Shown here piece after piece: positions 1-44,539 of a stretch of 64,000 bases of DNA. The stretch's first letter is position 1. Each line of letters opens with the position of its first letter. Made by a program: the position numbers and the translations under genes. The stretch is from a virus: IMG/VR virus record IMGVR_UViG_3300046007_014223, positions 18,802 to 82,801 of that record. One strand, written 5' to 3'. The notes below the pieces were generated by a model that was given only the letters and a program-made list of their open reading frames with translations, was not told the DNA's origin and ran no database searches.

Positions 1-1
1 A

Positions 2-592
2 AACATAGATTACATTGATGAATATATTGTTTCGAACTTCAATAAGTTAGAAGATATAGAGAAGATATGTGATTACACTTTTTCATCTAAAATCGATGTA
101 TTAGTAAATAACGCAGGCATTAACATCATAAACGATTTTGTAGATATACCTCCATCGGAGTTTATTCAAATACAGCAAGTTAACGTCTACGCCCCTTTTC
201 GCATTAGTCAACAAGCCATTAAAAACATGATTGAAAATAATTGGGGACGCATTGTCAATGTGAGTTCAGTATGGGGGATCATTAGTAAGAGCGGTCGTGC
301 AAGTTATAGCACAAGCAAGTTTGGAATAGATGGGCTTACATTAGCAATTGCTAATGAGCATGCACATAATGGAATTTTATGTAATAGCGTCGCCCCTGGG
401 TTTATTGATACTGACATGACTTGGAAGAATCTTGGTAATGAGGGGGTCTTAAAAATTTTAGAAGGTGTTCCAATCAAAAGATTGGCTAAAGTTAACGAGG
501 TGGCTAATTTAATTTATATGTTGGGTAGTGAGCAAAATACATATATCTCAGGGCAAAATATAGCGATTGATGGAGGGTTTACACGTGCTTAA
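2..592 (+). CDS. Short-chain dehydrogenase/reductase (FabG-like SDR), 5'-truncated by the window edge
   Basis: Frame is open from position 2, upstream of the track's ATG at 227. It encodes IDVLVNNAGIN, then the catalytic YSTSK (YxxxK), NSVAPGFIDTDM and a C-terminal ISGQNIAIDGGFT. Confidence 0.9.
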   Translation, partial: NIDYIDEYIVSNFNKLEDIEKICDYTFSSKIDVLVNNAGINIINDFVDIPPSEFIQIQQVNVYAPFRISQQAIKNMIENNWGRIVNVSSVWGIISKSGRASYSTSKFGIDGLTLAIANEHAHNGILCNSVAPGFIDTDMTWKNLGNEGVLKILEGVPIKRLAKVNEVANLIYMLGSEQNTYISGQNIAIDGGFTRA

Positions 593-1619
593 TATTAAAA
601 GTCATTCTTGTGATTATTGTGTTGAAATAGACAACCAAATAAAAACTAATGGGAAAATTCCCTCATTGGGCACACACTTTGTCATAGACAAAAAGGTATA
701 TGAAACCTTACCTGATGAGTTAAAACTTTCGTTGTTTAATGTTGTTCTTATAGAGGCGAATGAACAAACTAAAAGTTACCAAGGAATCGAACCTATTATA
801 GTAGAGCTTTTACAACAAAATTTGAGGCGTGATAGCACATTAGTAGCAATCGGGGGAGGGATAACACAAGATATCACATGCTTTATTGCTACAACATTCA
901 TGCGCGGAATAAAATGGGCTTTCGTTCCCACTACTCTATTAGCTCAGGCTGATAGTTGTATAGGTAGTAAAAGTAGTATAAATTTTAACAGTTACAAGAA
1001 TCTTCTTGGTAGTTTCACCCCCCCAAATAGAATCATCATATCTCAACAATTTTTAGAAACATTGCCTGATAATGACTTTACTAGCGGAGTGGGTGAAATA
1101 GCTAAACTTCTTATCATAGCAGGGAAGAATTTTGAATTTGGTCGTGTGAATCACACTACCATTTTTAATTTCACACTCGAAGCGTTGATGATAAAACGTG
1201 AATTTATTGAAAAGGATGAATTCGATAAAGGCATTCGACAAATTTTAAATTATGGACATTGTATTGGTCATGGAATCGAAAGCGCCACTAACTTTGTTAT
1301 ACCTCATGGTATAGCTATCTCTATGGGTATGGATGTAGTAAATCGTTTCGCACTAAACAAAAACCTGATTACGCAAGAACGATTTCAACATTTACATAAC
1401 TCTATCGCACCACTATACCAAAATTTTAATAAGATTGCAATACAAGTAGAAAAAGTATTCTATTCACAAACCAAAGACAAAAAAAATACAGGCAATAAAA
1501 TAAATCTTGTGCTCCCAGTGGGGAATAAAATTGAAAAACATGGGTTTGAAAACGAAAAAGCTCTATGGGATGAATTGCATAGAGCTTTTTCGCAAACACC
1601 TATTGCTATTCAATCATAG
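585..1619 (+). CDS. AroB/dehydroquinate synthase-related sugar phosphate cyclase
   Basis: GGGITQD, VPTTLLAQADSCIGSKSSIN, KNLLGSF, LNYGHCIGHGIES and HGIAISMG are divergent versions of DHQS-superfamily motifs. Likely start is GTG at 585 (GGAGG at 572-576); the ORF track starts at 567. Confidence 0.85.
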   Translation: MLNIKSHSCDYCVEIDNQIKTNGKIPSLGTHFVIDKKVYETLPDELKLSLFNVVLIEANEQTKSYQGIEPIIVELLQQNLRRDSTLVAIGGGITQDITCFIATTFMRGIKWAFVPTTLLAQADSCIGSKSSINFNSYKNLLGSFTPPNRIIISQQFLETLPDNDFTSGVGEIAKLLIIAGKNFEFGRVNHTTIFNFTLEALMIKREFIEKDEFDKGIRQILNYGHCIGHGIESATNFVIPHGIAISMGMDVVNRFALNKNLITQERFQHLHNSIAPLYQNFNKIAIQVEKVFYSQTKDKKNTGNKINLVLPVGNKIEKHGFENEKALWDELHRAFSQTPIAIQS

Positions 1620-2406
1620 CTTTCCATCTCGACTCAAGCATTTCAATGCGTGTATCATCTTCTCTAAAGATGCTACCATAATAGTCACGCTTGTTTTTCA
1701 ACCATAGCAATTCAAACTTAACCGCTGCAATTAGAGCTTTATCGGCGGCAGGCAATTGAATTGCTTCACCCTTAAAAATAATCTTACGTGTCTCATAACG
1801 ATCTAAATGCACACTTTGAACTTCTCGTATTGATGGAATAGCGTCACGACTGATGCCCCCACCCATAACAAGTTCAATACCTGCCTTTTTACATGAGTGC
1901 GCTGTTGCAACAACTTTCTCAGTTACAAAATCTTTGTTGACATCTTCGCGACCGTTGGCTCCCATACTCATAACAAAATCGACTCGACCAAATACCAGGC
2001 CATCTAATCCATCTTGAACTTTTGCTGCTTCAATCATTCCATCAAGATTTTCGAAACCTGTGATTGTTTCAAGATTTGTTAAAAACTTGACTTCCTTGCG
2101 GTCATCAGAATCAAAAATTTTATTTTTTGAACTGATAAACTTCGATAAAGCATATGGAGTTTCAACCATTGGGGCAATGATATAATCTACTCCAAACTGC
2201 TTAACTTCCATCAAGTCACGCATCGCTTCACATCCGCCAATTTTAAGGCCGATGCCCAAATCTGCCTTTCGGGCGATTTCAATCAATCGTAGCAATTCAT
2301 CTGTTCGAGTTCCCTCTGCTTCAAATTCTGCCTTGACTGCTGTATATCCAAATTCTTGTTTACCCTGTTTAAGAATATCAAGCATTTGCCGTTCTTTTAA
2401 GTTCAT
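1606..2406 (-). CDS. HpcH/HpaI aldolase / citrate lyase family protein
   Basis: KAEFEAEG, LKIGGCEA, IIAPMVET, NLETITG and LVFGRVDF match the aldolase-like family found in polysaccharide loci. Confidence 0.75.
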   Translation of the reverse strand: MNLKERQMLDILKQGKQEFGYTAVKAEFEAEGTRTDELLRLIEIARKADLGIGLKIGGCEAMRDLMEVKQFGVDYIIAPMVETPYALSKFISSKNKIFDSDDRKEVKFLTNLETITGFENLDGMIEAAKVQDGLDGLVFGRVDFVMSMGANGREDVNKDFVTEKVVATAHSCKKAGIELVMGGGISRDAIPSIREVQSVHLDRYETRKIIFKGEAIQLPAADKALIAAVKFELLWLKNKRDYYGSIFREDDTRIEMLESRWKAMIE

Positions 2407-2420
2407 TTTTTATCTCCTAT

Positions 2421-3740
2421 TTACTCAATTAGACTCATAAAGCTATCAACCTGTTCACCAATATAAGCAATTTGCTCTGGTGTAATCACAGGGCTAGTCC
2501 CGTGAAAATATGTATCTCCCATGACCTTGGTTGCATTAGGATAGTTTACTTTTGCATCGTCCGCCCTCATAATGCTCGAATAAGCGGGTTGTAGCATCAG
2601 ATTTCCTGCAAAGTAGGGTCGTGTTTGAATTAACCTGTCTTCAAGATGATTTACAATATCGATACGTTTAAATGGCGCACCATCTTTAATAGTAAGAGGG
2701 AATGCAAACCATGAAGGATCAGCACCTTTTTGTGGGCGAGGGAGGTGGAAAAATTCTTCATATTTTTCGTAAATTTTAAAAAGCAAGTTATAATTTCGCT
2801 TTCTTAGGGCATGTATTTCTTCTAGTTTGGTTAGTTGTACAAGCCCCATTGCGCCTTGTATTTCAATAGGTTTAAGATTGTAACCTATTTCATCGTAAAC
2901 GTATTTGTGATCAAAAATCTCACCACACATGTTAGGAATCCATTCAGAAAATCTTTTACCACATGTACCACATTGCAACTTATTCGCCTCAGGTCCCACG
3001 CAATAGCACCCACGACCCCATTCACGAAAGCTGCGCAAAATTACTTCTTGCTCGTATGTATTACATGCGACGAACCCACCTTCACCCATTGTCATATGAT
3101 GTGCAGGATAAAAGGAACAAGAAGCCATATCACCAAATGACCCCAAAGGTTTCCCATCATGTGTGCTTCCCAAGGCATCACAGCAATCTTCTAAAAATAT
3201 CAAATTATATTTTTTAACCAAATCCATAATTGCAGGCATATCCGGACAATTACCTAAAACATGTGCAAATGTAATTACCTTAACATTGTTTTTTCTGATA
3301 ATATCTTCTAGACCTTCAAGATTTATGTTCAAAGTATCGAGTTCGATGTCTGCGAACACAGGAACAAACCCGTTCTGAACTATGGGATTAAAGGTGGTTG
3401 GGAATCCTGCGATTGGAACTAGAACCTTAGTACCTTCAGGGAGATTGTACCCCCTCTTTGACTTTAAAGAAGTCATCATTAGCAAGTTTGCACTTGAGCC
3501 TGAGTTAGTTAGAATGCCATGATTCTTCCCAAATTGTGGAGGAAATTTTTTTTCGAAATCAAGACACTTATTACCCATAACAAGCCATCCATCAAGAAGG
3601 GTGTCCATTACTGAAGCGTACTCTCTTTCATCAAAGTAAGGCCCAGCGTAATTAACGAAGTCTTTACCTGCAACCCATTTCTTATTTTTTCCTTTATCTT
3701 TAAAGTATTCAGAAACTTTAGAAATAATTTCTTGCTTCAT
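2421..3740 (-). CDS. rfbH: CDP-4-keto-6-deoxyglucose 3-dehydratase (RfbH/DdhC, E1; PMP- and Fe-S-dependent)
   Basis: DegT/DnrJ fold (NSGSSANLL, EDCCDALGS), SFYPAHHMTMGEGG with His in place of the Schiff-base Lys, the WGRGCYC...CGTCGKRF Fe-S segment and DHKYVYDEIGYNLK. Confidence 0.88.
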   Translation of the reverse strand: MKQEIISKVSEYFKDKGKNKKWVAGKDFVNYAGPYFDEREYASVMDTLLDGWLVMGNKCLDFEKKFPPQFGKNHGILTNSGSSANLLMMTSLKSKRGYNLPEGTKVLVPIAGFPTTFNPIVQNGFVPVFADIELDTLNINLEGLEDIIRKNNVKVITFAHVLGNCPDMPAIMDLVKKYNLIFLEDCCDALGSTHDGKPLGSFGDMASCSFYPAHHMTMGEGGFVACNTYEQEVILRSFREWGRGCYCVGPEANKLQCGTCGKRFSEWIPNMCGEIFDHKYVYDEIGYNLKPIEIQGAMGLVQLTKLEEIHALRKRNYNLLFKIYEKYEEFFHLPRPQKGADPSWFAFPLTIKDGAPFKRIDIVNHLEDRLIQTRPYFAGNLMLQPAYSSIMRADDAKVNYPNATKVMGDTYFHGTSPVITPEQIAYIGEQVDSFMSLIE

Positions 3741-3741
3741 A

Positions 3742-4674
3742 TTATCCCCAATATGCAAATGTGCTTTCTAATCCAGGAACCCTGTCGCGATTTTGTGGTT
3801 GATCTATTTGTAATGGATAAATCCAATGATCATTGAACATTTGATTCCATTCATTATAACCTGAGACCTTTGCCCACCGACCACCCTTAACACCGAAGTA
3901 TAATTGTATCACACCTCCAGTTTGTATGCCAATTTTACCTAAACTTTTTGCATGATCAACGAATATTGGAGACGAGGTGCTTGCACCAGATAATAACACA
4001 TCAAAGTCATATGACTCAATCAAAGTTTTAATATGATTAACCATATCCCCCCACGTATTGCAATTAGGATATTGTCTGTCATCGATTGCGGGATGATAGG
4101 GAGCACGAATAACATCAACCAAATCAAAAGGAACAATTTTTTGCAAATTTTCTCCCCAAATTAGTTTACGCTTGTTCCATTGACTTTTAATACTATTTGC
4201 ATGAGTAGAAATTACTAAAACTTTTTTTCCCTTTAAATACTGTGTCCATGGATCAAAGGAGATTGGATGTTGAAGGTTTTCAATATAAAGTTTTGAGTAA
4301 CCCAAAAGCGATCCGGGATCAAATACCATATACCCTTCACTAAAAAAAAGAACTTTATCTTTTAGAGGTTCTGTTAAAGGCGACCCATTTCGTATGACAT
4401 TTGAAATATCAACAAATCCTATTGCATTCGCTCTAAACATACATTCATAGGTTTTCTCATATGCAACTGATATTGCATACTCAGGGGTGTTGGGATATAC
4501 ACCACCTTCAAGAATAGTTAAGGGATTAAAAAATTGTTGTGAGATGGGTGTATTTTTTGCTACACAATCCATCACATATCCTGCAGTGTTGTCAAGGCGA
4601 ATAACTGAAGCAGGCTCTCCTCTTATTAGAAGATCGCTTAAGTATTCATTCATTTCATAAAAATTTTTATTCAT
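3742..4674 (-). CDS. Putative glycosyltransferase, GT-D-fold-like
   Basis: C-terminal DFDVLLSGA...HAKSLGKIGIQTGGVIQLYFGVKGGRW resembles the GT-D-like signature; lies within a sugar island. Confidence 0.55.
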   Translation of the reverse strand: MNKNFYEMNEYLSDLLIRGEPASVIRLDNTAGYVMDCVAKNTPISQQFFNPLTILEGGVYPNTPEYAISVAYEKTYECMFRANAIGFVDISNVIRNGSPLTEPLKDKVLFFSEGYMVFDPGSLLGYSKLYIENLQHPISFDPWTQYLKGKKVLVISTHANSIKSQWNKRKLIWGENLQKIVPFDLVDVIRAPYHPAIDDRQYPNCNTWGDMVNHIKTLIESYDFDVLLSGASTSSPIFVDHAKSLGKIGIQTGGVIQLYFGVKGGRWAKVSGYNEWNQMFNDHWIYPLQIDQPQNRDRVPGLESTFAYWG

Positions 4675-5377
4675 GCTTTAGTAGTTGTACAATTTGTTGT
4701 CGGTCATTTTTAATCCAATGAAATAAAACTTTTAGATTATGAGGTAGAACATTAAATAGTTGTGCCATTTCTGTTTCAGCTTGTACCTTATTATAGTTTG
4801 TTCCTGGTGGATGATCAATGGTGTGAAAGTAATCCCGAATCACAAGTCGACCCATGAGATAACTTATCGCAGGGAAAATAATATCCCACCCCCATCCCAT
4901 TTTGTAGGGGGACATATCTATTTTTTCTTGTTTGAAAACATCAATAACATCTTTATGAATAAACCAACATGTACAATCAGGACAGGCAACAAGTTTCATT
5001 GTTTTATCTCTCAGTTCAACACCTGCAATATCTGTTCGGGTAGAATCGTACCATGTATAATCAACGTTGGGTGCATAGATTCCCCAGTTATAGGTTTCAT
5101 ATGAATCATTTGCGTCCTGTAAAAGATTTTGCCAATCCCTATAAGAAGCATCACCTTGAATATGAAAAAGAACATCACCATCAAAAAGTTCTAATGCTTT
5201 CAGGAATTGATCTGTAAAGTATGCACTTTCACCAACGTTTACCCACCCCTCATCGTTGTGTGTTTCATCTGAATTTATGATGAGAGGTGTGTGTCCAATA
5301 GAATTTAGTTGTTCTATTTTTTCTTTGGTCTTATCATACTGCCCACGCCAATTAAAAATAAATGACTGTATCTTCAC
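4667..5377 (-). CDS. Putative GT-A fold glycosyltransferase
   Basis: FIFNW N-terminus, LFHIQGDA (DxD-like), DCTCWFI, GWGWD and a C-terminal His (IDHP); context within the sugar island. Confidence 0.5.
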   Translation of the reverse strand: MKIQSFIFNWRGQYDKTKEKIEQLNSIGHTPLIINSDETHNDEGWVNVGESAYFTDQFLKALELFDGDVLFHIQGDASYRDWQNLLQDANDSYETYNWGIYAPNVDYTWYDSTRTDIAGVELRDKTMKLVACPDCTCWFIHKDVIDVFKQEKIDMSPYKMGWGWDIIFPAISYLMGRLVIRDYFHTIDHPPGTNYNKVQAETEMAQLFNVLPHNLKVLFHWIKNDRQQIVQLLKHE

Positions 5378-6248
5378 GTTTTTTTATTCTCCGATAAACA
5401 ATAGCATCAAACCAATTTAAAAAGTTATCAAGGTTAACATAATAAGGGGGAATGTTATGTACGAATTTTGGTTGTGATATGTGGCTTTTATATAAGTCCT
5501 CATTTTCATCTAACCTTTGAATGTGCTCAATAGCTTTATTAAAGTTTGCGAACCTGTGCATATTAACAAATGCATGACCATTAAAGTCTGCTGCAATTGT
5601 AGGGCTTCCCCAATAGATCGGAACCGTTTGTGCATAAAAAGCGTGTAAAATCTTTTCTGTTACATATCCCGGATGTGAATAGCTTTCAAAACAAATATTG
5701 AATTTTCTTGTTGACAGAAAATCGATTTTAGCTTTCTCTCCTTCAAGATTTGCCTCAATATTGTTGAAGTGTTTACCCCCACTATCAATCTTTTTATATT
5801 CAGATAAAGCATTATAGAAGTCATTACGTGTTTTGCAATTGGGGTTGCTTACAACAAAACTTGCAAATCCTGTCTTTTCTTTAACATCAGTAGGATTAAA
5901 AATATACTCATACTTGTAGTTTGTCTTATGAATATGTTCAAGCGCCCACATATAGATTACGAAAAGAGGCAAACGATAATGCCAAGCATGTAAATTGTGG
6001 TCAAATGAAATTGCATAATCGCAATCATATTTTTCGGGTCTTTTATTCTCACCTGTGTAGAAAATTTTAACTACATCTTTTCGCGAAAATTTTTTATTTG
6101 ATTGACCAAAATTGTCATCACCGAAAATCAAAAAATCGGGATTGTCGTGATCTAGTTCTATGTCAAATCTTCTCGCTAGAATATTGTAAAAGAAAGTAGC
6201 TATATGTTCATGCGTATCTGTAAAGCCTAATTTAATTTTTGGTTTCAT
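5352..6248 (-). CDS. Alpha-1,3/4-fucosyltransferase, GT10 family
   Basis: KIFYTGEN, FASFVVSN and the GT10 motif KFNICFES...GYVTEKILHAFYAQTVPIYWG. Confidence 0.9.
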   Translation of the reverse strand: MKPKIKLGFTDTHEHIATFFYNILARRFDIELDHDNPDFLIFGDDNFGQSNKKFSRKDVVKIFYTGENKRPEKYDCDYAISFDHNLHAWHYRLPLFVIYMWALEHIHKTNYKYEYIFNPTDVKEKTGFASFVVSNPNCKTRNDFYNALSEYKKIDSGGKHFNNIEANLEGEKAKIDFLSTRKFNICFESYSHPGYVTEKILHAFYAQTVPIYWGSPTIAADFNGHAFVNMHRFANFNKAIEHIQRLDENEDLYKSHISQPKFVHNIPPYYVNLDNFLNWFDAIVYRRIKKREDTVIYF

Positions 6249-7140
6249 TAATCACCCATTCGAATGTTTTAAAAATTGAGTCATCTGAATGATCAGTCAC
6301 ATGCTTATAATTACATTTGACCTTCACTTTGTTTGACATTGATTCATTGGGACCCTTACAAAAAGAAACAATCGTTTTACTTTCATCTTTTAAATTTTTC
6401 CCCGTCTCACAAAAAACAAAAGGTCCTGAATTTTTTCCTATAATTGCGTTACACTTTGTACTCAAATACGAGATTTCATTTAAGTCACATGTATTATGTG
6501 GACGATCAAACCAGTAAGGGTTGACACCAGTAAAGAATTGTTCAGTGTCTTGAATTATATCATCAGTGCATAAAATGTTAAATACATTTGCTTTTATTTT
6601 TTTAGTGCAAATAAAGTCAATGTCTTCGTTTTGTTTTGCAAACAGTTCAATCACTTCATTCATATCAGATTCAAATGATTGATTTGACATAGGTTTACCA
6701 TTGCAGATAAGAATTTTCTTTCTATCATTATTCGCAACAAATTTATCAACATTTGTTACATTAAAATAAGAGTAATCGACTTCAGGTAAATATCTTTCCG
6801 GATCATCATATAACTTAGCCCCCAATTTATCAAAAATTTGTTCCCAGCTTTCATATAATGATTGTAGATTTACACCCCCATGCCTTGTAAAAATATCATT
6901 CCACACACCAATCCATGTATTGATTGCAATCACTTCCCCTTGGTCATAAAATTTGATATTGTTATCTATTGTATTAGGCAAATTAGTAAGAGGTATATTT
7001 AAATCAAGATTTACCTTTGGGTGATTGTAATGCCAATACTCAAAGTTATACGAAGGAAAAATACTTTTCAAATGCCGGGCGAATTCCTTGTGAGTGAATA
7101 AATCACCCCGATGGAAATGATTGAAAAGGATGATTCTCAT
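6232..7140 (-). CDS. Hypothetical protein, probable GT-B glycosyltransferase; paralog of 45254-46216
   Basis: NHFHRGDLF, INTWIG, LICNGKPMSNQS and CDLNEISYLSTKCNAIIGKNSGPF are shared with the 45-46 kb paralog. Confidence 0.45.
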   Translation of the reverse strand: MRIILFNHFHRGDLFTHKEFARHLKSIFPSYNFEYWHYNHPKVNLDLNIPLTNLPNTIDNNIKFYDQGEVIAINTWIGVWNDIFTRHGGVNLQSLYESWEQIFDKLGAKLYDDPERYLPEVDYSYFNVTNVDKFVANNDRKKILICNGKPMSNQSFESDMNEVIELFAKQNEDIDFICTKKIKANVFNILCTDDIIQDTEQFFTGVNPYWFDRPHNTCDLNEISYLSTKCNAIIGKNSGPFVFCETGKNLKDESKTIVSFCKGPNESMSNKVKVKCNYKHVTDHSDDSIFKTFEWVINETKN

Positions 7141-7484
7141 TCGACTCCCTTGTACAATTTTACTGAATCTTCTGCCAAAGATTTCCCGCGAATGATAGCA
7201 TCATCAACCATACGATTAATAGCTTGCACAAATTTAGGACGCTTTTGTTTAAAGCAAATATCAACCTTACGCTTAATATCAGCTAGTTCCTCATCTGATT
7301 TGGCAGCTTGTGCTGCATCCTCAAGCATCCATGTGCGAATATGAAGGATGACTAGCTTTTCAATAACTTCACCCAAGTTATCTGTTGGGATGTATTCTTC
7401 AATGTCAGGCATTTGTCTTTTCGTTAATACATCTTCAACGGTTCGAATAATAATACCTTCTAGTTCTTCAGCAAATATCGTCAT
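7137..7484 (-). CDS. Small helical hypothetical protein
   Basis: ORF coupled to its neighbours; GGAGG at 7491-7495 (minus strand) precedes the ATG at 7484; motif TDNLGEVIEKLVILHIRTW. Confidence 0.6.
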   Translation of the reverse strand: MTIFAEELEGIIIRTVEDVLTKRQMPDIEEYIPTDNLGEVIEKLVILHIRTWMLEDAAQAAKSDEELADIKRKVDICFKQKRPKFVQAINRMVDDAIIRGKSLAEDSVKLYKGVE

Positions 7485-8646
7485 ATACATCCTCCATAGC
7501 GTGTTCAAGTAATTTCATATGTTTGTTTCCTACAAAGTGATTGTTTCCAATATACACACCTTGTGAATGTAAAATTTCTGCGTTTGTTTTATGTTTGTTT
7601 GTTTCAATCTTATATCCTCTGTTAACCAAAAAAGGTTGTGTAAGAAGATTGCCGCTTACAATTGGGCGATACTCAATATTATAATGTTTAAATGCTTCTT
7701 TCATGATTCTAGCGATTTTTTCACTTTTGCATACGAAAGGAAAGCAAAAACTGCTATTGCCATCTTCATACGTATGAGGATAAAAAAGTGTAGGATATTG
7801 ATTAATGATTTTAACATATTGTTCGTAGTTATGTCTACGCTGTTCAATCATCGAATCTAATCTTTTAAGTTGTGAGGATCCGAGGACCGCACAAATTTCA
7901 TGGTTCCTAAAATTGTAACCATCTGTCATAAACAAAAAAGATGGTTCAATGTGTGAATATTTCTCAGCGTATTCTTTTTGTTTTGTCGATTCGCGAGCCA
8001 TCCCATGACTTCGCTTCATACGCATCAAATCGTATAGGTCAGCATTATTAGTTGATACCATACCCCCTTCAATAGTAGACATATGGTGTCCAAAGTAAAA
8101 ACTAAAAGTCGAACCTAAACTCTTTGATCCATACTTTTCACCTTCAACATCTTTACATCCATGCGACTCACAAATGTCATCGATAATAAGAGCATTGGGA
8201 AATAGTTTTTGTAGCTTATGATTATCCGCAGGGAACCCCAATAAGTGTGTTACAAAAATTGCTTTAATGTCTTTGTACTTTTTAGCGATTTGTTTTGCAT
8301 CATCAAGATCAAAACTATAATTTTGTAAGTTAATATCACAAAATATTGGCTGTAGACCCAATTGAAAAACAGGAGAGATGTTTGTAACCCATGTACATGC
8401 AGGAACAAGGACTTTATCTCCGTCCCTTAGATTATACAATTCTTTTACAGCGGAAAGTAAAAGCGTGTTTGCTGTACTTCCACTACTTACAAAAAGTGAA
8501 TGCTTTACACCTAGCCAGTTACTCCATTCTTGTTCAAATTTCTTGACCTTCTCCCCATACGTAAATCTTTTTGCAGTCATTACGAATGACGCCATTTTTA
8601 TCCTATCACCCCATGTAATAGTTTCACCCATCAAAGGCCATTTCAT
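7468..8646 (-). CDS. colD: GDP-4-keto-6-deoxymannose 3-dehydratase (ColD-like, DegT/DnrJ family)
   Basis: SSGSTANTL, DDICESHG and FSFYFGHHMSTIEGGMV (His in place of Lys); lacks the RfbH Fe-S cysteines; lies directly downstream of gmd-fcl. Confidence 0.75.
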   Translation of the reverse strand: MKWPLMGETITWGDRIKMASFVMTAKRFTYGEKVKKFEQEWSNWLGVKHSLFVSSGSTANTLLLSAVKELYNLRDGDKVLVPACTWVTNISPVFQLGLQPIFCDINLQNYSFDLDDAKQIAKKYKDIKAIFVTHLLGFPADNHKLQKLFPNALIIDDICESHGCKDVEGEKYGSKSLGSTFSFYFGHHMSTIEGGMVSTNNADLYDLMRMKRSHGMARESTKQKEYAEKYSHIEPSFLFMTDGYNFRNHEICAVLGSSQLKRLDSMIEQRRHNYEQYVKIINQYPTLFYPHTYEDGNSSFCFPFVCKSEKIARIMKEAFKHYNIEYRPIVSGNLLTQPFLVNRGYKIETNKHKTNAEILHSQGVYIGNNHFVGNKHMKLLEHAMEDVYDDIC

Positions 8647-9578
8647 AGGAATCTCCCTCGATTTTCTTTAAACCATGCAATCGTTCTTGCAAGTCCCTCA
8701 TCAAACGATACCTTAGGCTTCCATCCAAGATCGAATAGTTTTGTGTTGTCTAGTTTTCTTCTAGGTGTGCCGTTTGGTTTGTCTGTGTTCCAAAAAATTT
8801 CACCGCTGTATCCCACCTCACGTTTAATAATTTCAGAAAGCTCTTTGATTGTAATTTCTACATCACTTCCCACATTAATATGTTCTGATGAGTTGTATTC
8901 ATTCATTAAAAATAAACAGGCGTCTGCTAGATCATCAACATAAAGAAACTCACGTGTCGGAGAACCATCACCCCATGCCTCAACAGTGTCTTGTCCTTCA
9001 AGTTTGGCATTGTAAAATTTATTAATGAGACCTGGAATTACATGACACTTATCAGGAAAGAAATTATCATTAGGTCCATACAAATTTGCAGGCATCAAAC
9101 TAATAGTGTTCAACCCATACTGCTTTGTGTAATACTTAGCCATCGTTAATCCTGCAATCTTTGCGAGCGCGTATGCATCATTCGTTGGTTCCAGCTTTGC
9201 TGATAGCAGGTATTCTTCTTTGATCGGTTGAGGTGTGACTTTAGGATAAATGCACGCCGAACCCAAAAACAATAATTTCTTTACACCTGTTTTATAAGCT
9301 GCATCAATCACATTTGATTGAATCATCAGATTATCATAAATGAAATCTGCAGGGTGTGTTGCATTGAAATTGATACCGCCGACCTTTGCTGCAGCGAGAA
9401 AAACATGCTCAGGTCGATACGTTCGAAAAAAATATTTGACAGATTCCTGATCACGTAAATCTAATGAATCTTTTGGTCGTACAATAATATCCTTGTAACC
9501 ATTTTCAGTTAGTTTTTTTACAAGAGCAGTCCCCACCAACCCGTTTCCTGCTACGTATATTCTGCTATTCTTATCCAT
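8643..9578 (-). CDS. fcl: GDP-L-fucose synthase / GDP-colitose synthase (epimerase-reductase)
   Basis: [58 protein letters not shown]. Confidence 0.93.
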
Positions 9579-10575
9579 GAATGCACATCTCCTCTACCAA
9601 ATCATTAAAACTATATTCAGGTTTCCAACCTAACACAGTTCTTGCCTTAGTAGAATCCCCCAACAATGTTTCTACCTCAGCAGGCCTAAAATACTTCAGA
9701 TCAACGTCTACAATAGTTTTTCCTGTATTCGTATCGACACCAACTTCATCAACACCTTCACCATACCATTCAATATTCATATCAAAATATGGTGCACACC
9801 GTTCAACAAATTGCTTTACTGAATATTGTTCACCTGTCGCAATCACAAAATCTTCTGCAGTATGATGTTGTAGGATCATCCACATTGCTCGACTATAGTC
9901 CTTAGCATGCCCCCAATCTCGCAAGGCATTTAGATTGCCTAAGGTTACTTTTTGTTGTTTTCCTCTACGAACATTTCGCAATCCATCAACAATCTTCTTC
10001 GTTACAAAGTTGTGACCGCGTCGAGGACTCTCATGGTTAAACAGAATACCTGAACAAGCAAACATGTTGTATGCCTCGCGATAATTCTTTACAATCCAGA
10101 ACCCATACAATTTTGCAACGCCATAGGGACTCCTCGGATAGAACGGCGTGCGCTCAGTTTGCGGAGTCTCTTGTACAAGGCCATAGAGCTCTGACGTAGA
10201 TGCCTGGTAAATCCTTACATCCTTTTCCATGCCCAATAGGCGAACTGCCTCAAGAACTTTCAACGTGCCCAAGCCATCAACCATTGCTGTGTACTCAGGT
10301 GTCTCAAAGGAAACCTTTACGTGACTCTGTGCAGCCAGATTATAAATTTCTTGTGGTTGTACTTTTTTGATGACTCCCATTATTGTCAGAGAATCAGTAA
10401 CATCACCATAGTGCAGCTTTAGTTTTGGATTGCTATATAGATGATCAATCCTACCAGTATTGATAGATGAACTTCTGCGAATAATGCCGTGAACATTATA
10501 ACCTTTTTCAAGCAATATTTCGGCTAGGTAGGAACCATCTTGACCCGTGATTCCTGTGATTAGAGCGGTTTTCAT
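9571..10575 (-). CDS. gmd: GDP-mannose 4,6-dehydratase
   Basis: [66 protein letters not shown]. Confidence 0.97.
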
Positions 10576-10602
10576 AACAAGTCACCTGTAATATCGATAC
10601 TG

Positions 10603-10610
10603 TATTTATA
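10603..10610 (-). promoter_or_regulatory. T4-type (gp55-dependent) late promoter TATAAATA driving the gmd operon
   Basis: Exact TATAAATA on the minus strand, 27 nt upstream of the gmd ATG and immediately downstream of a terminator. The same motif precedes gp23, gp22, gp18 and gp13. Confidence 0.8.
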
Positions 10611-10614
10611 ATAC

Positions 10615-10640
10615 AAAAAAGGCGCCAGTTCAATGGCGCC
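10615..10640 (-). terminator. Rho-independent terminator of the MoxR gene
   Basis: Minus strand reads GGCGCCA-TTGAAC-TGGCGCC followed by TTTTTT. Confidence 0.85.
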
Positions 10641-10660
10641 TTGAAGAAAAGAAAACTTAT

Positions 10661-11854: not shown

Positions 11855-11886
11855 GCAAGTCACTCCTGAAAAATCATCATGTTTAA

Positions 11887-11915
11887 ATTATATAAAAAAC
11901 CCAGATTCTTGTCAA
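11887..11915 (-). promoter_or_regulatory. Consensus sigma70 (early) promoter for the MoxR gene
   Basis: Minus strand TTGACA (11915-11910), 17-nt spacer, TATAAT (11892-11887): a perfect consensus. Confidence 0.85.
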
Positions 11916-11922
11916 GAAGTTT

Positions 11923-14043: not shown

Positions 14044-14068
14044 ATGATCTCCTCAATCAACACTGTCA

Positions 14069-23739: not shown

Positions 23740-24285
23740 TCAATCATCAAATTCAAGTTTTAGTGCTGTTTCCTCAGCCATCTTTGTACTTTTCTTTTGA
23801 GGTGTCGCTGCTCTGCGATCCGGATCAATCGTATCCAATTGCTTTTTGACGTAATCTAAAAACTGATTACTAAAGTCACTTGAGTCAGTCTCTTGGGTAA
23901 TGATCTCATCAATATCAATGTTTTCAAGAAGTTTATACTTTGTGGCTTGTTGTTTCTTTTCTTTTTGGATTCGTCGAATGAACGCATAATAAACGATTTG
24001 AGTATAATATGCAAAAGGATTCTTTGACTTTTCGGGATCAAATTTTTCAGCAGCAACAAGGCAATTTTCAATTGCATCAGATACCATATCGTCGCGGAAT
24101 GAATAATTTATAAAGTTACCTTTGTAAGCTAAATGGTTAGATATCTTAATAAAACATTCGCCGATGTACTTAGGCAAAATAGGTTTGTCAACCCCTTGTG
24201 CAACAGCCTCATTACAAGCGGCTTTATACTGTGTCAATGCCTCAAGGAATTTATCATTGTCAACATAATGTGTTGCTTTTCTCAT
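23740..24285 (-). CDS. 55: gp55 late-transcription sigma factor
   Basis: HYVDN, YIGECFIKI, NFINYSFRDDMVSDAIENC, FDPEKSKNPFAYYTQI...AFIRRIQKEKKQ. Confidence 0.95.
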   Translation of the reverse strand: MRKATHYVDNDKFLEALTQYKAACNEAVAQGVDKPILPKYIGECFIKISNHLAYKGNFINYSFRDDMVSDAIENCLVAAEKFDPEKSKNPFAYYTQIVYYAFIRRIQKEKKQQATKYKLLENIDIDEIITQETDSSDFSNQFLDYVKKQLDTIDPDRRAATPQKKSTKMAEETALKLEFDD

Positions 24286-24286
24286 A

Positions 24287-24727
24287 TTAGTGATACCATT
24301 TCTTTCTATTTTCTTGTGATTTGGATACTTCTTCAAGCATTTCTTCTATTTCTTCATCTTCATCGTACTCATCATCTTCAGTACCTGCGATCTCAGCTCC
24401 ACCTTCTTCAATGGGTTGTTGAGAATTAGGATCGGTTATAAATTCAATGTACTTGTCGATAAAAATTTCCTTTAACTTACCCACAAACACTACATTACTC
24501 ATAGGTATTTTTGTTGTGTTGTCGCTTGAAAACGGTGTCCAAGATTGCATAATGTATTTTTCAATGATGACACCATTGTGAGGAATCTTAAATGAAAAGA
24601 TTTGAATGGGATCTATTATAGGAAGAAACTTTAATTTTTCAATTGTTGATACATCATGAAGGGTTGTGCAAATCAAGTTATCTCCGTTAGATAGCTTAAT
24701 AAAAATAAACTTTGCTTCTTCAGTCAT
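24287..24727 (-). CDS. Hypothetical protein (Sm-like N-terminus, acidic tail)
   Basis: IKLSNGDNLI...WTPFS; sits in the usual slot between uvsW and gp55 in aquatic T4-like phages. Confidence 0.65.
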   Translation of the reverse strand: MTEEAKFIFIKLSNGDNLICTTLHDVSTIEKLKFLPIIDPIQIFSFKIPHNGVIIEKYIMQSWTPFSSDNTTKIPMSNVVFVGKLKEIFIDKYIEFITDPNSQQPIEEGGAEIAGTEDDEYDEDEEIEEMLEEVSKSQENRKKWYH

Positions 24728-41600: not shown

Positions 41601-42437
41601 CTACTTCAGGCCCATTGTTTTACGTATTTTTGTGGCACTAATTGAGTGTATATTATCATCAAAAACTTCTTGCTCTATCTTATATCCCACATCTCGACCA
41701 TACGTTATATTTACAATGTTGGGGACTGCAATAATCTCATACTGACCTTGATAATGAGGGTCTAGATCTCTGCGAATAAAGTTTTTAACTTGCTGAATTG
41801 CAAAGGGATTACTATCATTCCACCCCTGACAATCACGAATCATAATACAAACTTGACCCGTTTTAGCAAGAGCTCTTTCGAATAGTGCACGATGACCTGC
41901 ATGCCAAGGTTGCCATCGGCCCAACATTTGAACGCTTTCTTTTTGCCAATCAAATCTTGGACGACGAAGATTTTGCACAATTCTTTCACCCACATAAGGA
42001 ACCCATGCTTCAGCATTTTGTTCTGTTATACGAAAATCATACTGTTCTGGTGGTATAAATGCCTTATTTGTGTCATCAAATCTACCTTCTGCAATGGTAT
42101 CCATCCAGATTGTCCAATCTGCTTTAAAGTTGTTTCGCATCTCTACAAGAGGCGCTACAAAATCGCAAATTACATATTCTTCATTACAAGAAAGAGCGAA
42201 TTCAAGCATTCGAATAGATTGACGAATTCTTCCTTCAGTGGTGAAATCCCAATCATTATACTTTCTTCGTACTTCGTCAGCATTAAACCACTTTACTCGA
42301 GCGTTTAGGTTTTGAAAGGGTGTATCAGGTGCAGATGATAGATCCCTTTTTCCGTGCTTCTCAAGGTAAATTTTTAATCTTTCTGCAAAGTATGTCTTTC
42401 CTGCCCCAGGAAGACCCATAATAAGAATTTTTTGCAT
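41601..42437 (-). CDS. Adenylylsulfate kinase-like P-loop domain fused to an HxGH nucleotidyltransferase domain
   Basis: N-terminal IMGLPGAGKT, NADEVR, DFTTEGRIRQ, DFVAP (CysC-like). C-terminal MLGRWQPWHAGH...YGRDVGY...ISATKIR (cytidylyltransferase-like). Confidence 0.75.
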   Translation of the reverse strand: MQKILIMGLPGAGKTYFAERLKIYLEKHGKRDLSSAPDTPFQNLNARVKWFNADEVRRKYNDWDFTTEGRIRQSIRMLEFALSCNEEYVICDFVAPLVEMRNNFKADWTIWMDTIAEGRFDDTNKAFIPPEQYDFRITEQNAEAWVPYVGERIVQNLRRPRFDWQKESVQMLGRWQPWHAGHRALFERALAKTGQVCIMIRDCQGWNDSNPFAIQQVKNFIRRDLDPHYQGQYEIIAVPNIVNITYGRDVGYKIEQEVFDDNIHSISATKIRKTMGLK

Positions 42438-42438
42438 A

Positions 42439-42696
42439 TTAAGCCAACGCTGCCTTTCCATTAGTAATTGCTGCTGTAAGATCGGATAGATCGCCCCCAA
42501 GTTCAACAACTTGTGGATCTGACATAACGATTTCTAAATGAGCAACGTTGCGTTCAATATTTCCGCGACCTTCTTCTGAAAGCACTCCTGTGTCAGCTTT
42601 CTTTTGAAGTTCATTTGTAACAACCCAAACGCTGTCACGTGCTGCTCGTACTGTTCCATCTACTCTTTGCTGTGCTGTTAGTTGTTGTTCAAGCAT
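42439..42696 (-). CDS. Hypothetical protein, 85 aa
   Basis: Tightly packed between the sulfotransferase and the kinase. Confidence 0.6.
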   Translation of the reverse strand: MLEQQLTAQQRVDGTVRAARDSVWVVTNELQKKADTGVLSEEGRGNIERNVAHLEIVMSDPQVVELGGDLSDLTAAITNGKAALA

Positions 42697-42697
42697 T

Positions 42698-43630
42698 TTA
42701 AGCTCCTATTATAAATGAAGGATTTTCTTGTGTTATGGGGAGTTCATTATCTGGAAGAAATTCTTCTTGAGGAATTTCTTCATTCATTGTACGCCAAAAT
42801 TCAGCGTTCTTACATTTATTTATAATTGTTTCAGATAAAATTTCAGCAGGATTTATACCACGACGACCCAAAGTTGTACGAACATCATGCATGTCTGCCA
42901 TTCCATATACTTGACCATCGTTTTCTTGGTGAATATTTACCAGGTTTGCAAAGTCATGTTTGAAGTAGTCCTCTTCAAGAAAGTCGTAAATTTTTTCCAT
43001 GGTATCTTGTGGATTATCAAGTAAATCATCATATTCGACAAAGTGTAAAGCCCTTTGTTGTCCTTGCATGATGCATTGCTTTAACCCCTCATAACTTTGA
43101 CCTAAAATGCCCATGGGGCTTGCTAATAGCTCACATCGATTATCATCTGTTAGTGGGAGATTTGATTTAACAAGCATTTCATCAAGAAAATTAAGTTTTA
43201 CGCTATCAACTTTTTGAAGATTTCTTCTTTGCATTGCGATGAACGATGCAAGGATTTCATCAATACTTCTAACAGGGCAAATAACTTTTGGCTGAATGCC
43301 AAAGTATCCTGAAATATAATGTAACCGATTAACCCATGATCTGTTTTTATCAATGATTACGGGTTTGTCAACATCCATATAAAATTGTGGCAAAATGTTT
43401 GCAATCATTTGTGCAGCAATTTGTGGTTTTGGATACGCTAAAAACAATTCATCTTGTGCCAAAGATGTTTCAAGAGCAAGCATCGTAGGCACTACAGGCG
43501 AGCTAGGTCCGGAATAGATTCGTGGATTTTGATTTAAAATAGCAGATAATAGAGTGCTACCCGCTCGAGGCAGTCCTGCCATAAAGTAATAAGATTTTGG
43601 TTCAATTTGTTTTGGGGGTTCATTAGCCAT
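42698..43630 (-). CDS. Sulfotransferase family protein
   Basis: 5'-PSB loop AGLPRAGSTLL, IDKNRSW, 3'-PB region ICPVRSIDEILAS, VEYDDLLDNP..TM.KIYDFL. Confidence 0.88.
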   Translation of the reverse strand: MANEPPKQIEPKSYYFMAGLPRAGSTLLSAILNQNPRIYSGPSSPVVPTMLALETSLAQDELFLAYPKPQIAAQMIANILPQFYMDVDKPVIIDKNRSWVNRLHYISGYFGIQPKVICPVRSIDEILASFIAMQRRNLQKVDSVKLNFLDEMLVKSNLPLTDDNRCELLASPMGILGQSYEGLKQCIMQGQQRALHFVEYDDLLDNPQDTMEKIYDFLEEDYFKHDFANLVNIHQENDGQVYGMADMHDVRTTLGRRGINPAEILSETIINKCKNAEFWRTMNEEIPQEEFLPDNELPITQENPSFIIGA

Positions 43631-43639
43631 AATAATCTC

Positions 43640-44539
43640 CTATTGCTTGTCCACAGATTCAATAATCTTATTTACATCAAACAATTTTACATCTTCTGTG
43701 AAAGGATATTCATGTTCATTCCCGTTAAAATCAAAGTCAAATAGATAGCTTCCGGGAAGTTTAAAGTCGTATGGAATTTCTGTGCAAATATTATCATGCA
43801 TATCATAACCAAATACCTTGGGGCTTGTTCCATTCCATAAAACGGTTGATTTTTTATTCATTGCAGCCGCGGCGTGTTGCAAACTTGAATCGATTAAAAT
43901 TCTTTTTTTTGCATGGAGTAAAATGGTAAAAAATTCAATCAAACTTAAAGATTGTTGAGGTGTAGCAAAAATGTGTTCTGCTCCATCAAGTTTTGGTGAG
44001 TTAAATTTTGTTACCTGATAGATGTGATAATCATTTTTGTAATGATTAATAAGATCCTGAGCAATATCGGGAGGCATGTCACGTGTCCATGCATATGGTT
44101 TTGCGTCAGTTGCCATCAATCCCCCGTTTGTATGAATCAACATTAGAGGTTTGTTTCTTTGCCAGAAAGTTTTTGATAAGTCAAATTGCAACTTGTTAAA
44201 CTTTAAAATTGGCATTTCATTATTATACTTCAATCCATACATCTCACACCAGTTAGGGATAAGTCTTTTTCTTTTGTGAATGTGATTTGTAGTAAAGTAG
44301 GGTTCGTGATGGAACAAAATAGAATCTTTATCTTGAACATACCTTTGATAAAAATAACTTGTATTACCCAAAGTATATACACGTTCGACAAAGTTTAGAT
44401 TTATAAACAAATCTGGGTAAGCACAAACCACAATTAGTTTTCTATCTGGGTAGTTGTTTTTAATGCACCTTGCTACAGCGGTCGCTGCTACATGTTTACC
44501 AATCCCCCCTTGAAGGTGGAAAATACTATATTTACTCAT
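43640..44539 (-). CDS. GT-B glycosyltransferase, GT9/heptosyltransferase-like
   Basis: GGIGKHVAATAV, LIVVCAYP, LIDSSLQHAAAA.NKKSTVLW.GT.P..FGY. Confidence 0.6.
   Translation of the reverse strand: MSKYSIFHLQGGIGKHVAATAVARCIKNNYPDRKLIVVCAYPDLFINLNFVERVYTLGNTSYFYQRYVQDKDSILFHHEPYFTTNHIHKRKRLIPNWCEMYGLKYNNEMPILKFNKLQFDLSKTFWQRNKPLMLIHTNGGLMATDAKPYAWTRDMPPDIAQDLINHYKNDYHIYQVTKFNSPKLDGAEHIFATPQQSLSLIEFFTILLHAKKRILIDSSLQHAAAAMNKKSTVLWNGTSPKVFGYDMHDNICTEIPYDFKLPGSYLFDFDFNGNEHEYPFTEDVKLFDVNKIIESVDKQ

Follow-up and report, generated by a model that had tools for sequence, protein, structure and literature searches.

A sugar-synthesis island headed by a conserved late-promoter motif in an uncultured freshwater T4-like phage, with virion glycosylation as a possible role

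An uncultured T4-like freshwater phage, recovered from lake water as an 82.8-kb record of which the window covers 64 kb, carries a main sugar island of ~17 kb and 19 genes, flanked by gp46/CobS and gp45. Our preferred reading, to which we assign a probability of roughly 40%, is that soluble phage enzymes work in the cytoplasm to build a sugar chain, most likely one that decorates the virion. The island described in an earlier note on this DNA was confirmed and is larger than that note said, extending beyond the left window edge to contig positions 12134-18598, where a second operon has its own TATAAATA at its head. The host is a freshwater organism and probably not cyanobacterial, since among cultured phages the OM43 and SAR11 myophages have the closest MCPs.

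The core of the island is a run of ten minus-strand ORFs (operon A, 1606-10575) separated by overlaps or by gaps of ≤15 nt; both the tight packing previously claimed and the gene calls hold. These genes and the signals preceding them are, from the 5′ end:

10619..10642, minus strand: intrinsic terminator closing the MoxR/CobS-like early transcription unit (9-pair stem, 6 G-C, then a T run)
10603..10610, minus strand: exact TATAAATA, a late promoter element of the T4 gp55 type, 27 nt 5′ of the gmd ATG (10575)
9571..10575, minus strand: gmd, GDP-mannose 4,6-dehydratase (TIGR01472, 531 bits against a cut-off of 415; PF16363, E 3e-146)
8643..9578, minus strand: Fcl/ColC-like GDP-4-keto-6-deoxymannose epimerase-reductase (NF047922, 426 bits, under the cut-off of 500)
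7468..8646, minus strand: ColD-type GDP-4-keto-6-deoxymannose 3-dehydratase (DegT gene, 392 aa; top solved match ColD/WbdK 2gms, E 3e-56)
7137..7508, minus strand: conserved helical protein (123 aa) whose family is confined to viruses (61% mean column identity, 30 sequences)
6232..7140, minus strand: GT-B fold glycosyltransferase, GT9/heptosyltransferase-like (302 aa; AlphaFold2 pLDDT 91.7)
5352..6248, minus strand: GT10 alpha-1,3-fucosyltransferase-like enzyme (PF00852, 73.7 bits; PF18025, 64.8 bits; both over cut-off)
4667..5377, minus strand: probable GT-A (GT2-like) glycosyltransferase (236 aa; Atlas proximity and acidic motifs)
3742..4674, minus strand: GT-D-like protein (PF22882, 26.2 bits, slightly under the cut-off of 27; kept in 11 relatives)
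2421..3758, minus strand: E1/RfbH-type NDP-4-keto-6-deoxyhexose 3-dehydrase (NF011936, 441 bits against a cut-off of 423)
1606..2406, minus strand: HpcH/HpaI-family aldolase-like protein, the final gene of the operon (PF03328, 38.2 bits against a cut-off of 25; no PDB sequence match)

Judging from the enzyme families, Gmd would convert host GDP-mannose to GDP-4-keto-6-deoxymannose. The DegT protein has a His at its active site (GHH, aligned to SHH) where aminotransferases have their Lys, and its identity as a ColD-type 3-dehydratase points to a GDP-colitose/fucose branch; with the Fcl/ColC-like protein, a putative GDP-L-fucose and/or GDP-L-colitose synthase whose gene follows gmd in every cassette examined, it would yield GDP-L-colitose and/or GDP-L-fucose. 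The E1/RfbH protein matched 3bcx (E 1e-102), with an AHH His and a Cys cluster (Fe-S cysteines) aligned, and its presence with a YerE-like ThDP enzyme and an RmlB-like 4,6-dehydratase suggests a second 3,6-dideoxy or branched sugar, which these enzymes and an RmlD-like reductase would probably produce.

Assembly of the chain itself would fall to a methyltransferase and four or more soluble glycosyltransferases, namely the GT-B and GT10 enzymes and the probable GT-A and GT-D ones. The GT-B model matched 3tov, 1psw, and WaaC in Foldseek (E 3e-7 to 1e-5), and its gene follows the small ORF in 27 loci. The 236-aa ORF had no Pfam or PDB sequence match; a protein-language-model search placed it near viral GT2-like Atlas clusters (scores 0.96-0.97), which is a lead only, and conserved acidic motifs were present in its alignment (A3). 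The 123-aa ORF had no family over threshold (a weak DUF4254 match only) and zero matches among 50,697 GenBank phage records; its closest Atlas clusters were viral, and its model, a three-helix bundle (pLDDT 77), gave no match in a fold search. Roughly nine glycosyltransferase-like genes had been counted previously in the window; the GT10 and GT-B genes are solid members of that tally, four were assigned on weak matches, and the two from phrog_1574, one of which lies at 26.6 kb, are doubtful.

The island further includes the plus-strand genes at 2-1619:

567..1619, plus strand: AroB-like sugar-phosphate cyclase, convergent with operon A (TIGR04425, 381 bits, under the cut-off of 400; PDB matches are DHQ synthases)
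2..592, plus strand: SDR reductase with TATAAATT upstream (5′ end beyond the window; complete at contig 18689-19393)

A second exact TATAAATA leads the downstream half of the island, which is set off by an inverted two-gene module, an inversion seen in this phage only. In five relatives the ThDP gene lies inside a co-directional operon, and in one of the relatives (G007) a sequence resembling an AroB-type 3′ end, judged by eye, lies directly upstream of the ThDP gene in the same direction. A near-identical phage (L004) retains 94.7% nucleotide identity through the small ORF, after which identity falls to 79%, 78%, and 66% and genes are gained and lost, a pattern that may reflect selection on the glycosyltransferase part; the cyclase-to-ThDP segment is dispensable in L004.

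The late-promoter motif was as previously described in exact form and position, and comparison supports its reading as a promoter. The raw TATAAATA count was not enriched (9 in the window vs. 6.8 expected); its placement was, with six of 12 copies on the whole 82.8-kb contig lying on the sense strand 5-70 nt 5′ of a start, against a baseline of 55/779 (7.1%) for all same-composition 8-mers, among which no other exceeded three. The six precede gmd, the ThDP gene, gp23, gp22, gp18, and gp13, and PHROGs confirmed the identities of the last four, canonical late genes, and of gp55. The record encodes gp45 and also the late sigma factor:

23740..24336, minus strand: gp55 late sigma factor, candidate reader of TATAAATA (phrog_234, E 4e-57)

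A survey of related phages recovered the exact motif 13-35 nt 5′ of the first start of the operon in nine of 12 syntenic relatives, within flanking sequence that has diverged to 50% mean column identity. Upstream, the hairpin at 10642-10619(-) is the top terminator-like site within 1-14200, bearing out the proposed terminator between the MoxR gene and the operon, and relatives have a hairpin of differing sequence at the same position; the MoxR/CobS-like gene has the sole 12/12 sigma-70 match in that interval (11915-11887(-)). In this clade (clade 1), operon A would be transcribed from gp55-type late promoters, and its enzymes would be made alongside structural proteins.

Late timing is not a fixed property of the cassette, since in a second T4-like clade (MCP 64% identical) gmd, fcl, ColD, the small ORF, and GT-B lie behind TTGACA-N17-TATAAT-type promoters at 10 loci. 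No intergenic NATAAATA was found inside these second-clade operons, and the same phages do place TATAAATA before gp23 and gp22. A wcaG RNA motif precedes gmd in cyanophage S-SKS1, as it does at two metagenomic loci, suggesting metabolite-responsive control. The late promoter previously proposed is supported in clade 1, but the step from late timing to a virion target is weakened by the sigma-70-type promoters and wcaG RNA found elsewhere.

A second sugar island lies among structural genes:

41601..46853, minus strand: six genes within the late fibre-to-neck operon, encoding a phrog_1574 protein, a 333-aa protein of no known family, GT2-like and GT9-like proteins, a sulfotransferase, and a P-loop kinase/nucleotidyltransferase-like protein

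Its neighbors are gp13 and a 1402-aa fibre gene, from which it is separated by a promoter-free gap of 24 nt, and four of the six genes occupy the same place in a clade-1 relative (G004) with an 87% identical MCP. Co-transcribed with the fibre genes, it may extend or sulfate the glycan.

The position of this second island is one of three points in favor of a virion target. The second is the lack of membrane machinery: none of 28 sugar-island and neighboring proteins had a hydrophobic 19-mer over threshold (the control, Vut_1, had six), and Pfam/NCBIfam scans detected no flippase, polymerase, ligase, or priming transferase. The third is the lack of the ThyA/dCMP-hydroxymethylase family, considered below. 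Among lytic viruses that carry sugar-nucleotide genes along with soluble glycosyltransferases and whose target is known (chloroviruses, mimiviruses, and mycobacteriophages), that target is reportedly the virion. The acceptor would most likely be a protein of the virion, the fibres and the capsid being candidates. No acceptor motif stood out. One fibre contained 25 G-x-[TS]-[GA] motifs vs. 9 expected, a count confounded by internal repeats.

Several observations count against a virion target. The main island is part of the replication module (gp46 to gp45), away from the structural genes, and the ordinary glycosyltransferases of O-antigen synthesis are soluble too, so that missing membrane proteins are compatible with action on undecaprenyl-linked intermediates of the host. 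Somewhat less likely than virion decoration is a role in host-envelope remodeling, in which phage glycosyltransferases at the inner membrane face would modify such O-antigen or capsule intermediates and the host flippase and ligase would display the altered glycan, for example blocking superinfection or, alternatively, keeping progeny from adsorbing to lysing cells and debris. This is the published view of such T4-like cyanophage clusters in the available text of PMC2984593 and PMC12801897. It draws further support from the GT9-like and GT10 families, best known from LPS synthesis and with the colitose/RfbH pathways classic O-antigen chemistry, from glycosyltransferase turnover among near-identical phages resembling that of O-antigen loci, and from the clade 2 promoters; the wcaG RNA of cyanophage-type loci likewise weighs against a virion role. 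However, the scanned proteins include no priming transferase, flippase, polymerase, ligase, or membrane protein, the conserved clade 1 promoter is late and would leave little time for export and display, and the second island shares its transcription unit with fibre genes.

We regard as improbable a soluble or small-molecule product, such as a cyclitol or unusual sugar conjugate, or control of the sugar-nucleotide pool through a GDP-mannose drain, with the AroB-like cyclase, SDR, aldolase, ThDP enzyme, and dehydratases as the makers and no phage macromolecule decorated. Similar genes are annotated as antibiotic-synthesis genes in the available text of PMC12801897, the AroB-related cyclase, SDR, HpcH aldolase, and ThDP enzyme are atypical of O-antigen loci, and the wcaG RNA suggests metabolite sensing; nevertheless, the conserved core always pairs sugar-nucleotide genes with glycosyltransferases, and the near-identical phage dispenses with the cyclase-to-ThDP segment. 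Glycosylation of phage DNA, like T4 glucosyl-hmC or the multi-sugar hmC glycans of other phages, is highly improbable: DNA-modifying phage glycosyltransferases are well known, but those known take UDP-sugars, the ThyA/dCMP-hydroxymethylase family (PF00303; control detected in 10 of 14 genomes) was absent in all five related records, three of them ≥90% complete, the phage already carries a 7-deazaguanine pathway, and a late promoter is ill-timed for co-replicative modification. The available text of PMC12801897 suggests this possibility for cyanophage glycosyltransferases, and that of PMC2984593 reports no evidence of it in cyanomyoviruses. In a Tet_JBP search, the control gave no signal.

Comparable sugar clusters, not mentioned by the earlier note, are already known in cyanomyoviruses, likewise T4-like phages (P-SSM2, S-SSM7, S-SM2, S-SKS1, S-CAM7, S-SCSM1, and S-SCSM2R). 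These 'LPS' clusters have been published since 2005-2010 and, in the available text, are read as host-surface modification or function-unknown (PMC3037559, PMC2984593), with function given as unknown in PMC3037559, PMC2984593, and PMC12801897. They contain gmd, fcl, fucosyltransferase-like genes, and many other glycosyltransferases in hyperplastic regions, their Gmd proteins are 70-72% identical to the one here, and the S-SKS1 cluster comprises gmd, fcl, several hypothetical proteins, and a fucosyltransferase. In contrast, the cluster here is headed by a conserved TATAAATA rather than the wcaG RNA motif, includes ColD, the small helical protein, and the GT-B gene, and lies between gp46/CobS and gp45.

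Among bacterial pathways, the closest are the Gmd-ColD-ColC colitose pathway of E. coli O55/Yersinia (ColD match E 3e-56, catalytic His shared) and the Yersinia E1 (RfbH/DdhC) 3,6-dideoxyhexose pathway (E1 match E 1e-102, His and Fe-S cysteines shared); unlike these, the island is without ManB/ManC, an E3 reductase, a cytidylyltransferase, Wzx, Wzy, and WaaL, and its 4,6-dehydratase is RmlB-like, not of the CDP type. The mechanism proposed here, as read from the genes, is that of mycobacteriophages, in which, in work attributed to Freeman and colleagues in 2023, phage-encoded soluble glycosyltransferases reportedly modify capsid and tail-tube subunits. Those siphoviruses infect Actinobacteria, have one or two glycosyltransferase genes beside the capsid gene, and use host sugar nucleotides, whereas this T4-like phage, with a presumed Gram-negative host, has roughly ten glycosyltransferase-like genes and complete deoxysugar pathways. 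Chlorovirus PBCV-1, a eukaryotic giant virus whose proven acceptor is the major capsid protein, encodes its own Gmd/GMER (GDP-fucose synthase) and several cytoplasmic glycosyltransferases and needs no membrane-bound host machinery. No colitose or RfbH branch is known in PBCV-1; Gmd, GDP-fucose synthase, and soluble glycosyltransferases, deduced here from gene content, are common to both viruses.

The record is 82,801 bases long with an estimated completeness of 46%, and its major capsid protein (MCP) shares 67% identity with the one from Methylophilales phage Melnitz, 63–65% with those of pelagimyophages, and ~60% with those of cyanomyoviruses. A T4-type gene set was recognized by PHROGs (gp23, gp22, gp21, gp20, gp18, gp19, gp13-15, terminase, gp46/47, UvsW/Y, and gp55), with the late sigma factor gp55 assigned by phrog_234 (E 4e-57); the sliding clamp gp45 (PF09116 and PF02916 matches), gp44, gp62, and RegA lie directly left of the window. 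No GenBank phage was matched by window 1-12000 in a megablast search, and window 8000-12500 was contained in 20 DNA runs labelled lake-water metagenome but in no RNA run among the sequencing runs listed. Elsewhere in the window, a 7-deazaguanine gene set (17405-23714) comprises QueD-, QueC-, and QueE-like genes, two GTP cyclohydrolases, and a 439-aa protein (phrog_10773), and adjoins a six-helix Vut_1/YhhQ-type transporter, which is unusual in a phage. G+C content is 0.43-0.45 at 10661-14043 vs. ~0.36 in the rest of the window; two genes lie there, one for the CobS/MoxR-like ATPase and one for a protein of 706 aa (phrog_459 ‘peptidase’; matches to cobalamin-synthesis/CobT-like families are weak), and both are preceded by clean sigma-70-type promoters. 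Additionally, the gaps at 32808-32991 and 42510-42697 each open with an apparent ATG frame, read by eye and below ORF size cut-offs, and are probably unannotated small genes.

The sugar island spans contig 12134-29376 (~17 kb, 19 genes), is flanked by gp46-PDF-CobT-like-CobS-like on one side and gp45 on the other, and is larger than the earlier note described. Its main block is the run of ten tightly coupled minus-strand genes proposed there (operon A), which is present at 1606-10575 with all genes overlapping or at most 15 nt apart, in the order gmd, Fcl-like, DegT-family, 123-aa ORF, 302-aa ORF, GT10 (fucosyltransferase-like), 236-aa ORF, GT-D-like (slightly below cut-off), RfbH, and HpcH-family aldolase. 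Plus-strand genes at window 2-1619 encode an SDR and an AroB-related sugar-phosphate cyclase. Left of the window, a second minus-strand operon begins with an acetolactate-synthase-type ThDP enzyme, followed by an RmlD-like reductase and then an RmlB-like NDP-hexose 4,6-dehydratase, continues with a protein of no recognized family, a GT2-like protein, a methyltransferase, and a GT2, and has its own exact copy of TATAAATA, the T4 gp55-type late promoter element, 45 nt ahead of its start. Five relatives have the ThDP gene inside a co-directional operon, with no such motif before it, and the entire island is one unidirectional operon in the near-identical relative L004. The inverted SDR-cyclase pair is thus particular to this phage, and the half that it separates off carries a late motif of its own.

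The insulation of operon A from the upstream MoxR gene by a terminator, and the exact late element at its head, were both found as had been claimed. The MoxR/CobS-like gene has the sole perfect sigma-70 match in 1-14200, and its transcript runs into the best terminator-like hairpin of that interval, after which come the promoter element and gmd:

10603-10610, minus strand: exact TATAAATA, intergenic and on the sense strand, after the terminator and 27 nt before the gmd ATG

The motif is not enriched by count in the window (nine copies vs. 6.8 expected). Its placement, however, is far from random: six of the 12 contig copies are found in sense orientation 5-70 nt upstream of start codons, namely those of gmd, the ThDP gene, and gp23, gp22, gp18, and gp13, the last four as noted earlier, against a background of 7.1% (55/779) for same-composition 8-mers so placed. 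A further exact copy at contig 11830-11837, just within the annotated 5′ end of gp45 and ~6.97 kb left of the window’s first base, could act as a late promoter if gp45 has a shorter start.

When viral contigs were scanned for Gmd, 79 loci were recovered; the gene order gmd, fcl, ColD, small ORF, GT-B gene is found in ~40 of them, and many of these extend to GT10, the 236-aa gene, GT-D, and RfbH. The gp46-PDF-CobT-CobS-gmd synteny is common to 12 loci. Nine of them (L004, L005, L009-L013, L019, and L020) carry an exact TATAAATA 13-35 nt ahead of the first start of the operon, usually preceded by a hairpin whose sequence differs between loci; in L014 and L015, which share one sequence, the motif is ahead of the hairpin, and in L082 it is absent. 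With a mean column identity of 50% across the aligned spacers, the motif before gmd is a phylogenetic footprint. The survey of relatives that the earlier note called for supports the late-promoter reading of operon A well, by comparison.

The same core cassette occurs in a second T4-like clade (clade 2; MCP 64% identical), where ten loci have a TTGACA-N17-TATAAT-type promoter ~30 nt before the first gene of the operon and no intergenic NATAAATA within it; these phages do carry TATAAATA ahead of gp23 and gp22. A third arrangement was found in three of the eight sources searched, which have a wcaG RNA motif directly upstream of gmd:

L088 (cultured cyanophage S-SKS1), 8837-8934: wcaG RNA motif RF01761, then a hairpin and T run
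L030 (metagenomic), 6684-6784: wcaG RNA motif RF01761, then a hairpin and T run
L037 (metagenomic), 7815-7910: wcaG RNA motif RF01761, then a hairpin and T run

A TGGTATAAT after the S-SKS1 hairpin was dropped as a sigma-70 promoter, since the hairpin comes after the wcaG RNA aptamer, whose expression platform it more likely forms. The window itself gave no Rfam match, so no wcaG RNA precedes gmd here. Lineages therefore differ in how the cassette is controlled: control would be riboswitch-like in the cyanophage-type loci and by late promoter in this phage, and late timing would be a trait of clade 1 (this phage and the relatives with a late-promoter-headed sugar operon). Of the proposal that late timing points to virion decoration, the late promoter stands by comparison, but the step from timing to target is weaker than proposed, given clade 2 and the wcaG loci, and late timing is not a fixed property of the cassette. 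A cassette with one function in all lineages would have to be able to perform it with late-only expression, which would favor targets that exist late in infection.

The first enzymes of operon A are the most readily assigned. Gmd is an equivalog match (TIGR01472, 531 bits vs. a cut-off of 415), and the best solved relative of the DegT-family protein is ColD (2gms, E 3e-56). The active-site His of ColD, a position marked by the H188N and H188K mutant entries, is kept (GHH aligned to the SHH of 2gms) where aminotransferases have Lys; because of this replacement the protein is taken to be a 3-dehydratase, and perosamine synthase was ruled out. The Fcl-like protein scored 426 bits to the Fcl model, below the equivalog cut-off of 500. 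Together, Gmd, ColD, and the Fcl/ColC-like enzyme are predicted to form a branch to GDP-colitose and perhaps another to GDP-fucose. RfbH is above its equivalog cut-off (NF011936, 441 bits vs. 423) and aligns end to end with Yersinia E1 (3bcx, E 1e-102), with the His and the [2Fe-2S] cysteine cluster in place, and the 4,6-dehydratase is RmlB-like (TIGR01181, 290 bits vs. 69 bits for the CDP type). As judged by these families, RfbH and the dehydratase, taken with the RmlD-like reductase and the ThDP enzyme, resemble routes to 3,6-dideoxy or branched sugars and may be akin to yersiniose synthesis. No nucleotidyltransferase, ManB/ManC, or E3 reductase was found in the island by Pfam and NCBIfam, and a CDP-glucose-forming cytidylyltransferase with a CDP-type dehydratase is absent among its genes.

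Among the putative transferases, the 302-aa protein has a predicted GT-B fold (pLDDT 91.7) nearest to GT9 heptosyltransferases. For the 236-aa protein, a protein-language-model lead to viral GT2-like clusters was the sole clue; a profile search of PDB sequences returned spurious TPR matches only, and hhalign found no relation to the island GT2 (probability 0.6). The aldolase had no match to PDB sequences. A gene is indeed present at 26.6 kb, where a further GT had been proposed, but its phrog_1574 homologues in Cr30 and phiM12, which lie between gp46 and gp45, carry the annotation ‘hypothetical’, and it was not counted as a confirmed GT.

The best conserved gene of the cassette encodes the 123-aa protein (window 7137-7508; mean column identity 61%, n = 30 sequences), with 32 invariant columns, many of them charged residues. 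Its family is restricted to viruses, and the predicted model is a three-helix bundle; Foldseek against the PDB gave nothing at E ≤ 0.001, and tblastn against GenBank phages gave no match. The protein looks more like an enzyme or obligatory partner than filler.

L004 is 94.7% identical to this phage in nucleotide sequence from gp47 through the small ORF, at the end of which lies a sharp recombination breakpoint beyond which transferase genes are swapped (L004 11452-15711 vs. window 7124 to -2759); identity in the L004 transferase genes falls to 79%, 78%, and 66%, the GT-B gene and the RfbH-to-RmlD segment are missing, and two other genes are present. The transferase part is a recombination hot spot, as in O-antigen loci, suggesting diversifying selection on the structure of the glycan itself; a virion coat and a host-surface glycan would agree with this pattern equally well.

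The second island (window 41601-46853, minus strand) lies inside the late fibre-to-neck operon, 24 nt after the gene for a 1402-aa fibre-like protein, with no promoter in the gap, and encodes a sulfotransferase, a P-loop kinase/nucleotidyltransferase-like protein, a phrog_1574 protein, and proteins of GT2-like and GT9-like type. The clade-1 relative G004 keeps four of the six genes at the same place, which in clade-2 phages is occupied by fibre-type genes. Both sugar islands of clade 1 would thus be in late transcription units, one of them common with the fibres. At 41601-43630, the sulfotransferase (PF13469) adjoins a protein whose P-loop kinase (APS-kinase/KTI12-like) and cytidylyltransferase-like matches are weak, a pair possibly serving sulfate activation and transfer and hinting at a sulfated glycan. 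The fibre-like protein (46878-51086) has repeats rich in GDVTGTANLNL, GGTGITATGT, and like motifs. G-x-[TS]-[GA] occurs 25 times in it vs. nine expected (z 5.7) and is enriched in one of three giant fibre proteins but not in the MCP, sheath, or tube; as the enriched protein is internally repetitive, the excess was given no weight as a sign of glycan acceptors.

The most likely target of the sugars is the virion, to which we assign a probability of roughly 0.4. The glycan would be made wholly in the cytoplasm by late-expressed phage enzymes, and the encoded GTs (GT10, GT-B fold) are soluble and lack membrane segments. Remodelling of the host envelope ranks behind, as a possible but less probable target. 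A scan of 28 proteins encoded in the sugar islands and next to them found no membrane segment, against six in the Vut_1 control, and Pfam and NCBIfam searches of the island genes found no priming (phosphoglycosyl) transferase, flippase/transporter, polymerase, or ligase; because ordinary O-antigen transferases are soluble too, this implies only that surface display would rest wholly on host machinery. Glycosylation of phage DNA is unlikely, because no member of the ThyA/dCMP-hydroxymethylase family occurs in five related records (three at least 90% complete; control positive in 10 of 14 genomes) and a 7-deazaguanine pathway is already present; a Tet_JBP search was negative, but so was its control, and the result is uninformative. 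Beyond virion glycosylation as such, it is conceivable, if doubtful, that a widespread freshwater T4-like clade coats its own particles, fibres first, with a cytoplasm-built, late-expressed O-antigen-like glycan (colitose or fucose plus a branched dideoxy sugar, maybe sulfated), and that transferase swaps among near-identical phages yield a differing ‘virion serotype’.

Large sugar-synthesis clusters have been known in T4-like aquatic phages since the first cyanomyovirus genomes, and virion glycosylation is reported for mycobacteriophages. Annotations of gmd and fcl are found in S-SKS1, S-CAM7, DSL-LC03, ACG-2014f, and S-SCSM1. In the available portions of two papers, large ‘LPS’ clusters in P-SSM2, S-SSM7, and S-SM2 are described as of unknown function (‘stuffer DNA’) or as possibly altering the host surface, and NATAAATA is given as the late promoter of cyanomyoviruses (PMC3037559, PMC2984593). 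The 13 GTs of S-SCSM2R, including one GT10, were read as host-surface or DNA modification in the accessible text (PMC12801897), that of PMC5082946 mentions only host LPS genes, and that of the Melnitz paper (PMC9004378) has nothing on sugar-synthesis clusters, its lone ‘glycosyl’ match being a putative glycosyl hydrolase. Neither a late promoter on such a cluster nor a glycosylated T4-like virion is reported in those portions of the five papers, although the pairing was not queried directly, and full-text literature searches found no time-course transcriptome of a phage with such a cluster; PMC6802176 contained none of the sugar- or T4-related terms sought.

The locus makes the question testable, with a compact core cassette in ~40 viral contigs and three control regimes (late promoter, sigma-70-type promoter, and wcaG RNA) in three lineages; only a function that still works under late-only expression would fit all three. 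A virion coat would be the first glycosylated virion of the T4 group and would give a function to the long-unexplained ‘LPS clusters’ of T4-like phages. Glycosylated particles would extend the range of virion glycosylation from mycobacteriophages and giant viruses to the T4 group and alter the view of how abundant aquatic phages adsorb, aggregate, are grazed, and are recognized by antibodies or lectins. Late remodelling of the host surface would instead represent a new kind of exit or anti-readsorption strategy.

Compared with known systems, the island lacks the integral membrane proteins of Wzx/Wzy- or ABC-dependent O-antigen clusters, and the upstream RNA of wcaG RNA-controlled gmd/wcaG clusters (RF01761) is missing before its gmd. 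From the E1/E3 3,6-dideoxyhexose pathway it has E1 (RfbH) but not the E3 partner, the cytidylyltransferase, or the CDP-type dehydratase; with the GDP-L-colitose pathway (Gmd, ColD, and ColC) it shares the Gmd equivalog and a ColD with the His. As in the virion glycosylation of mycobacteriophages and chloroviruses, the soluble GTs are encoded by the virus itself.
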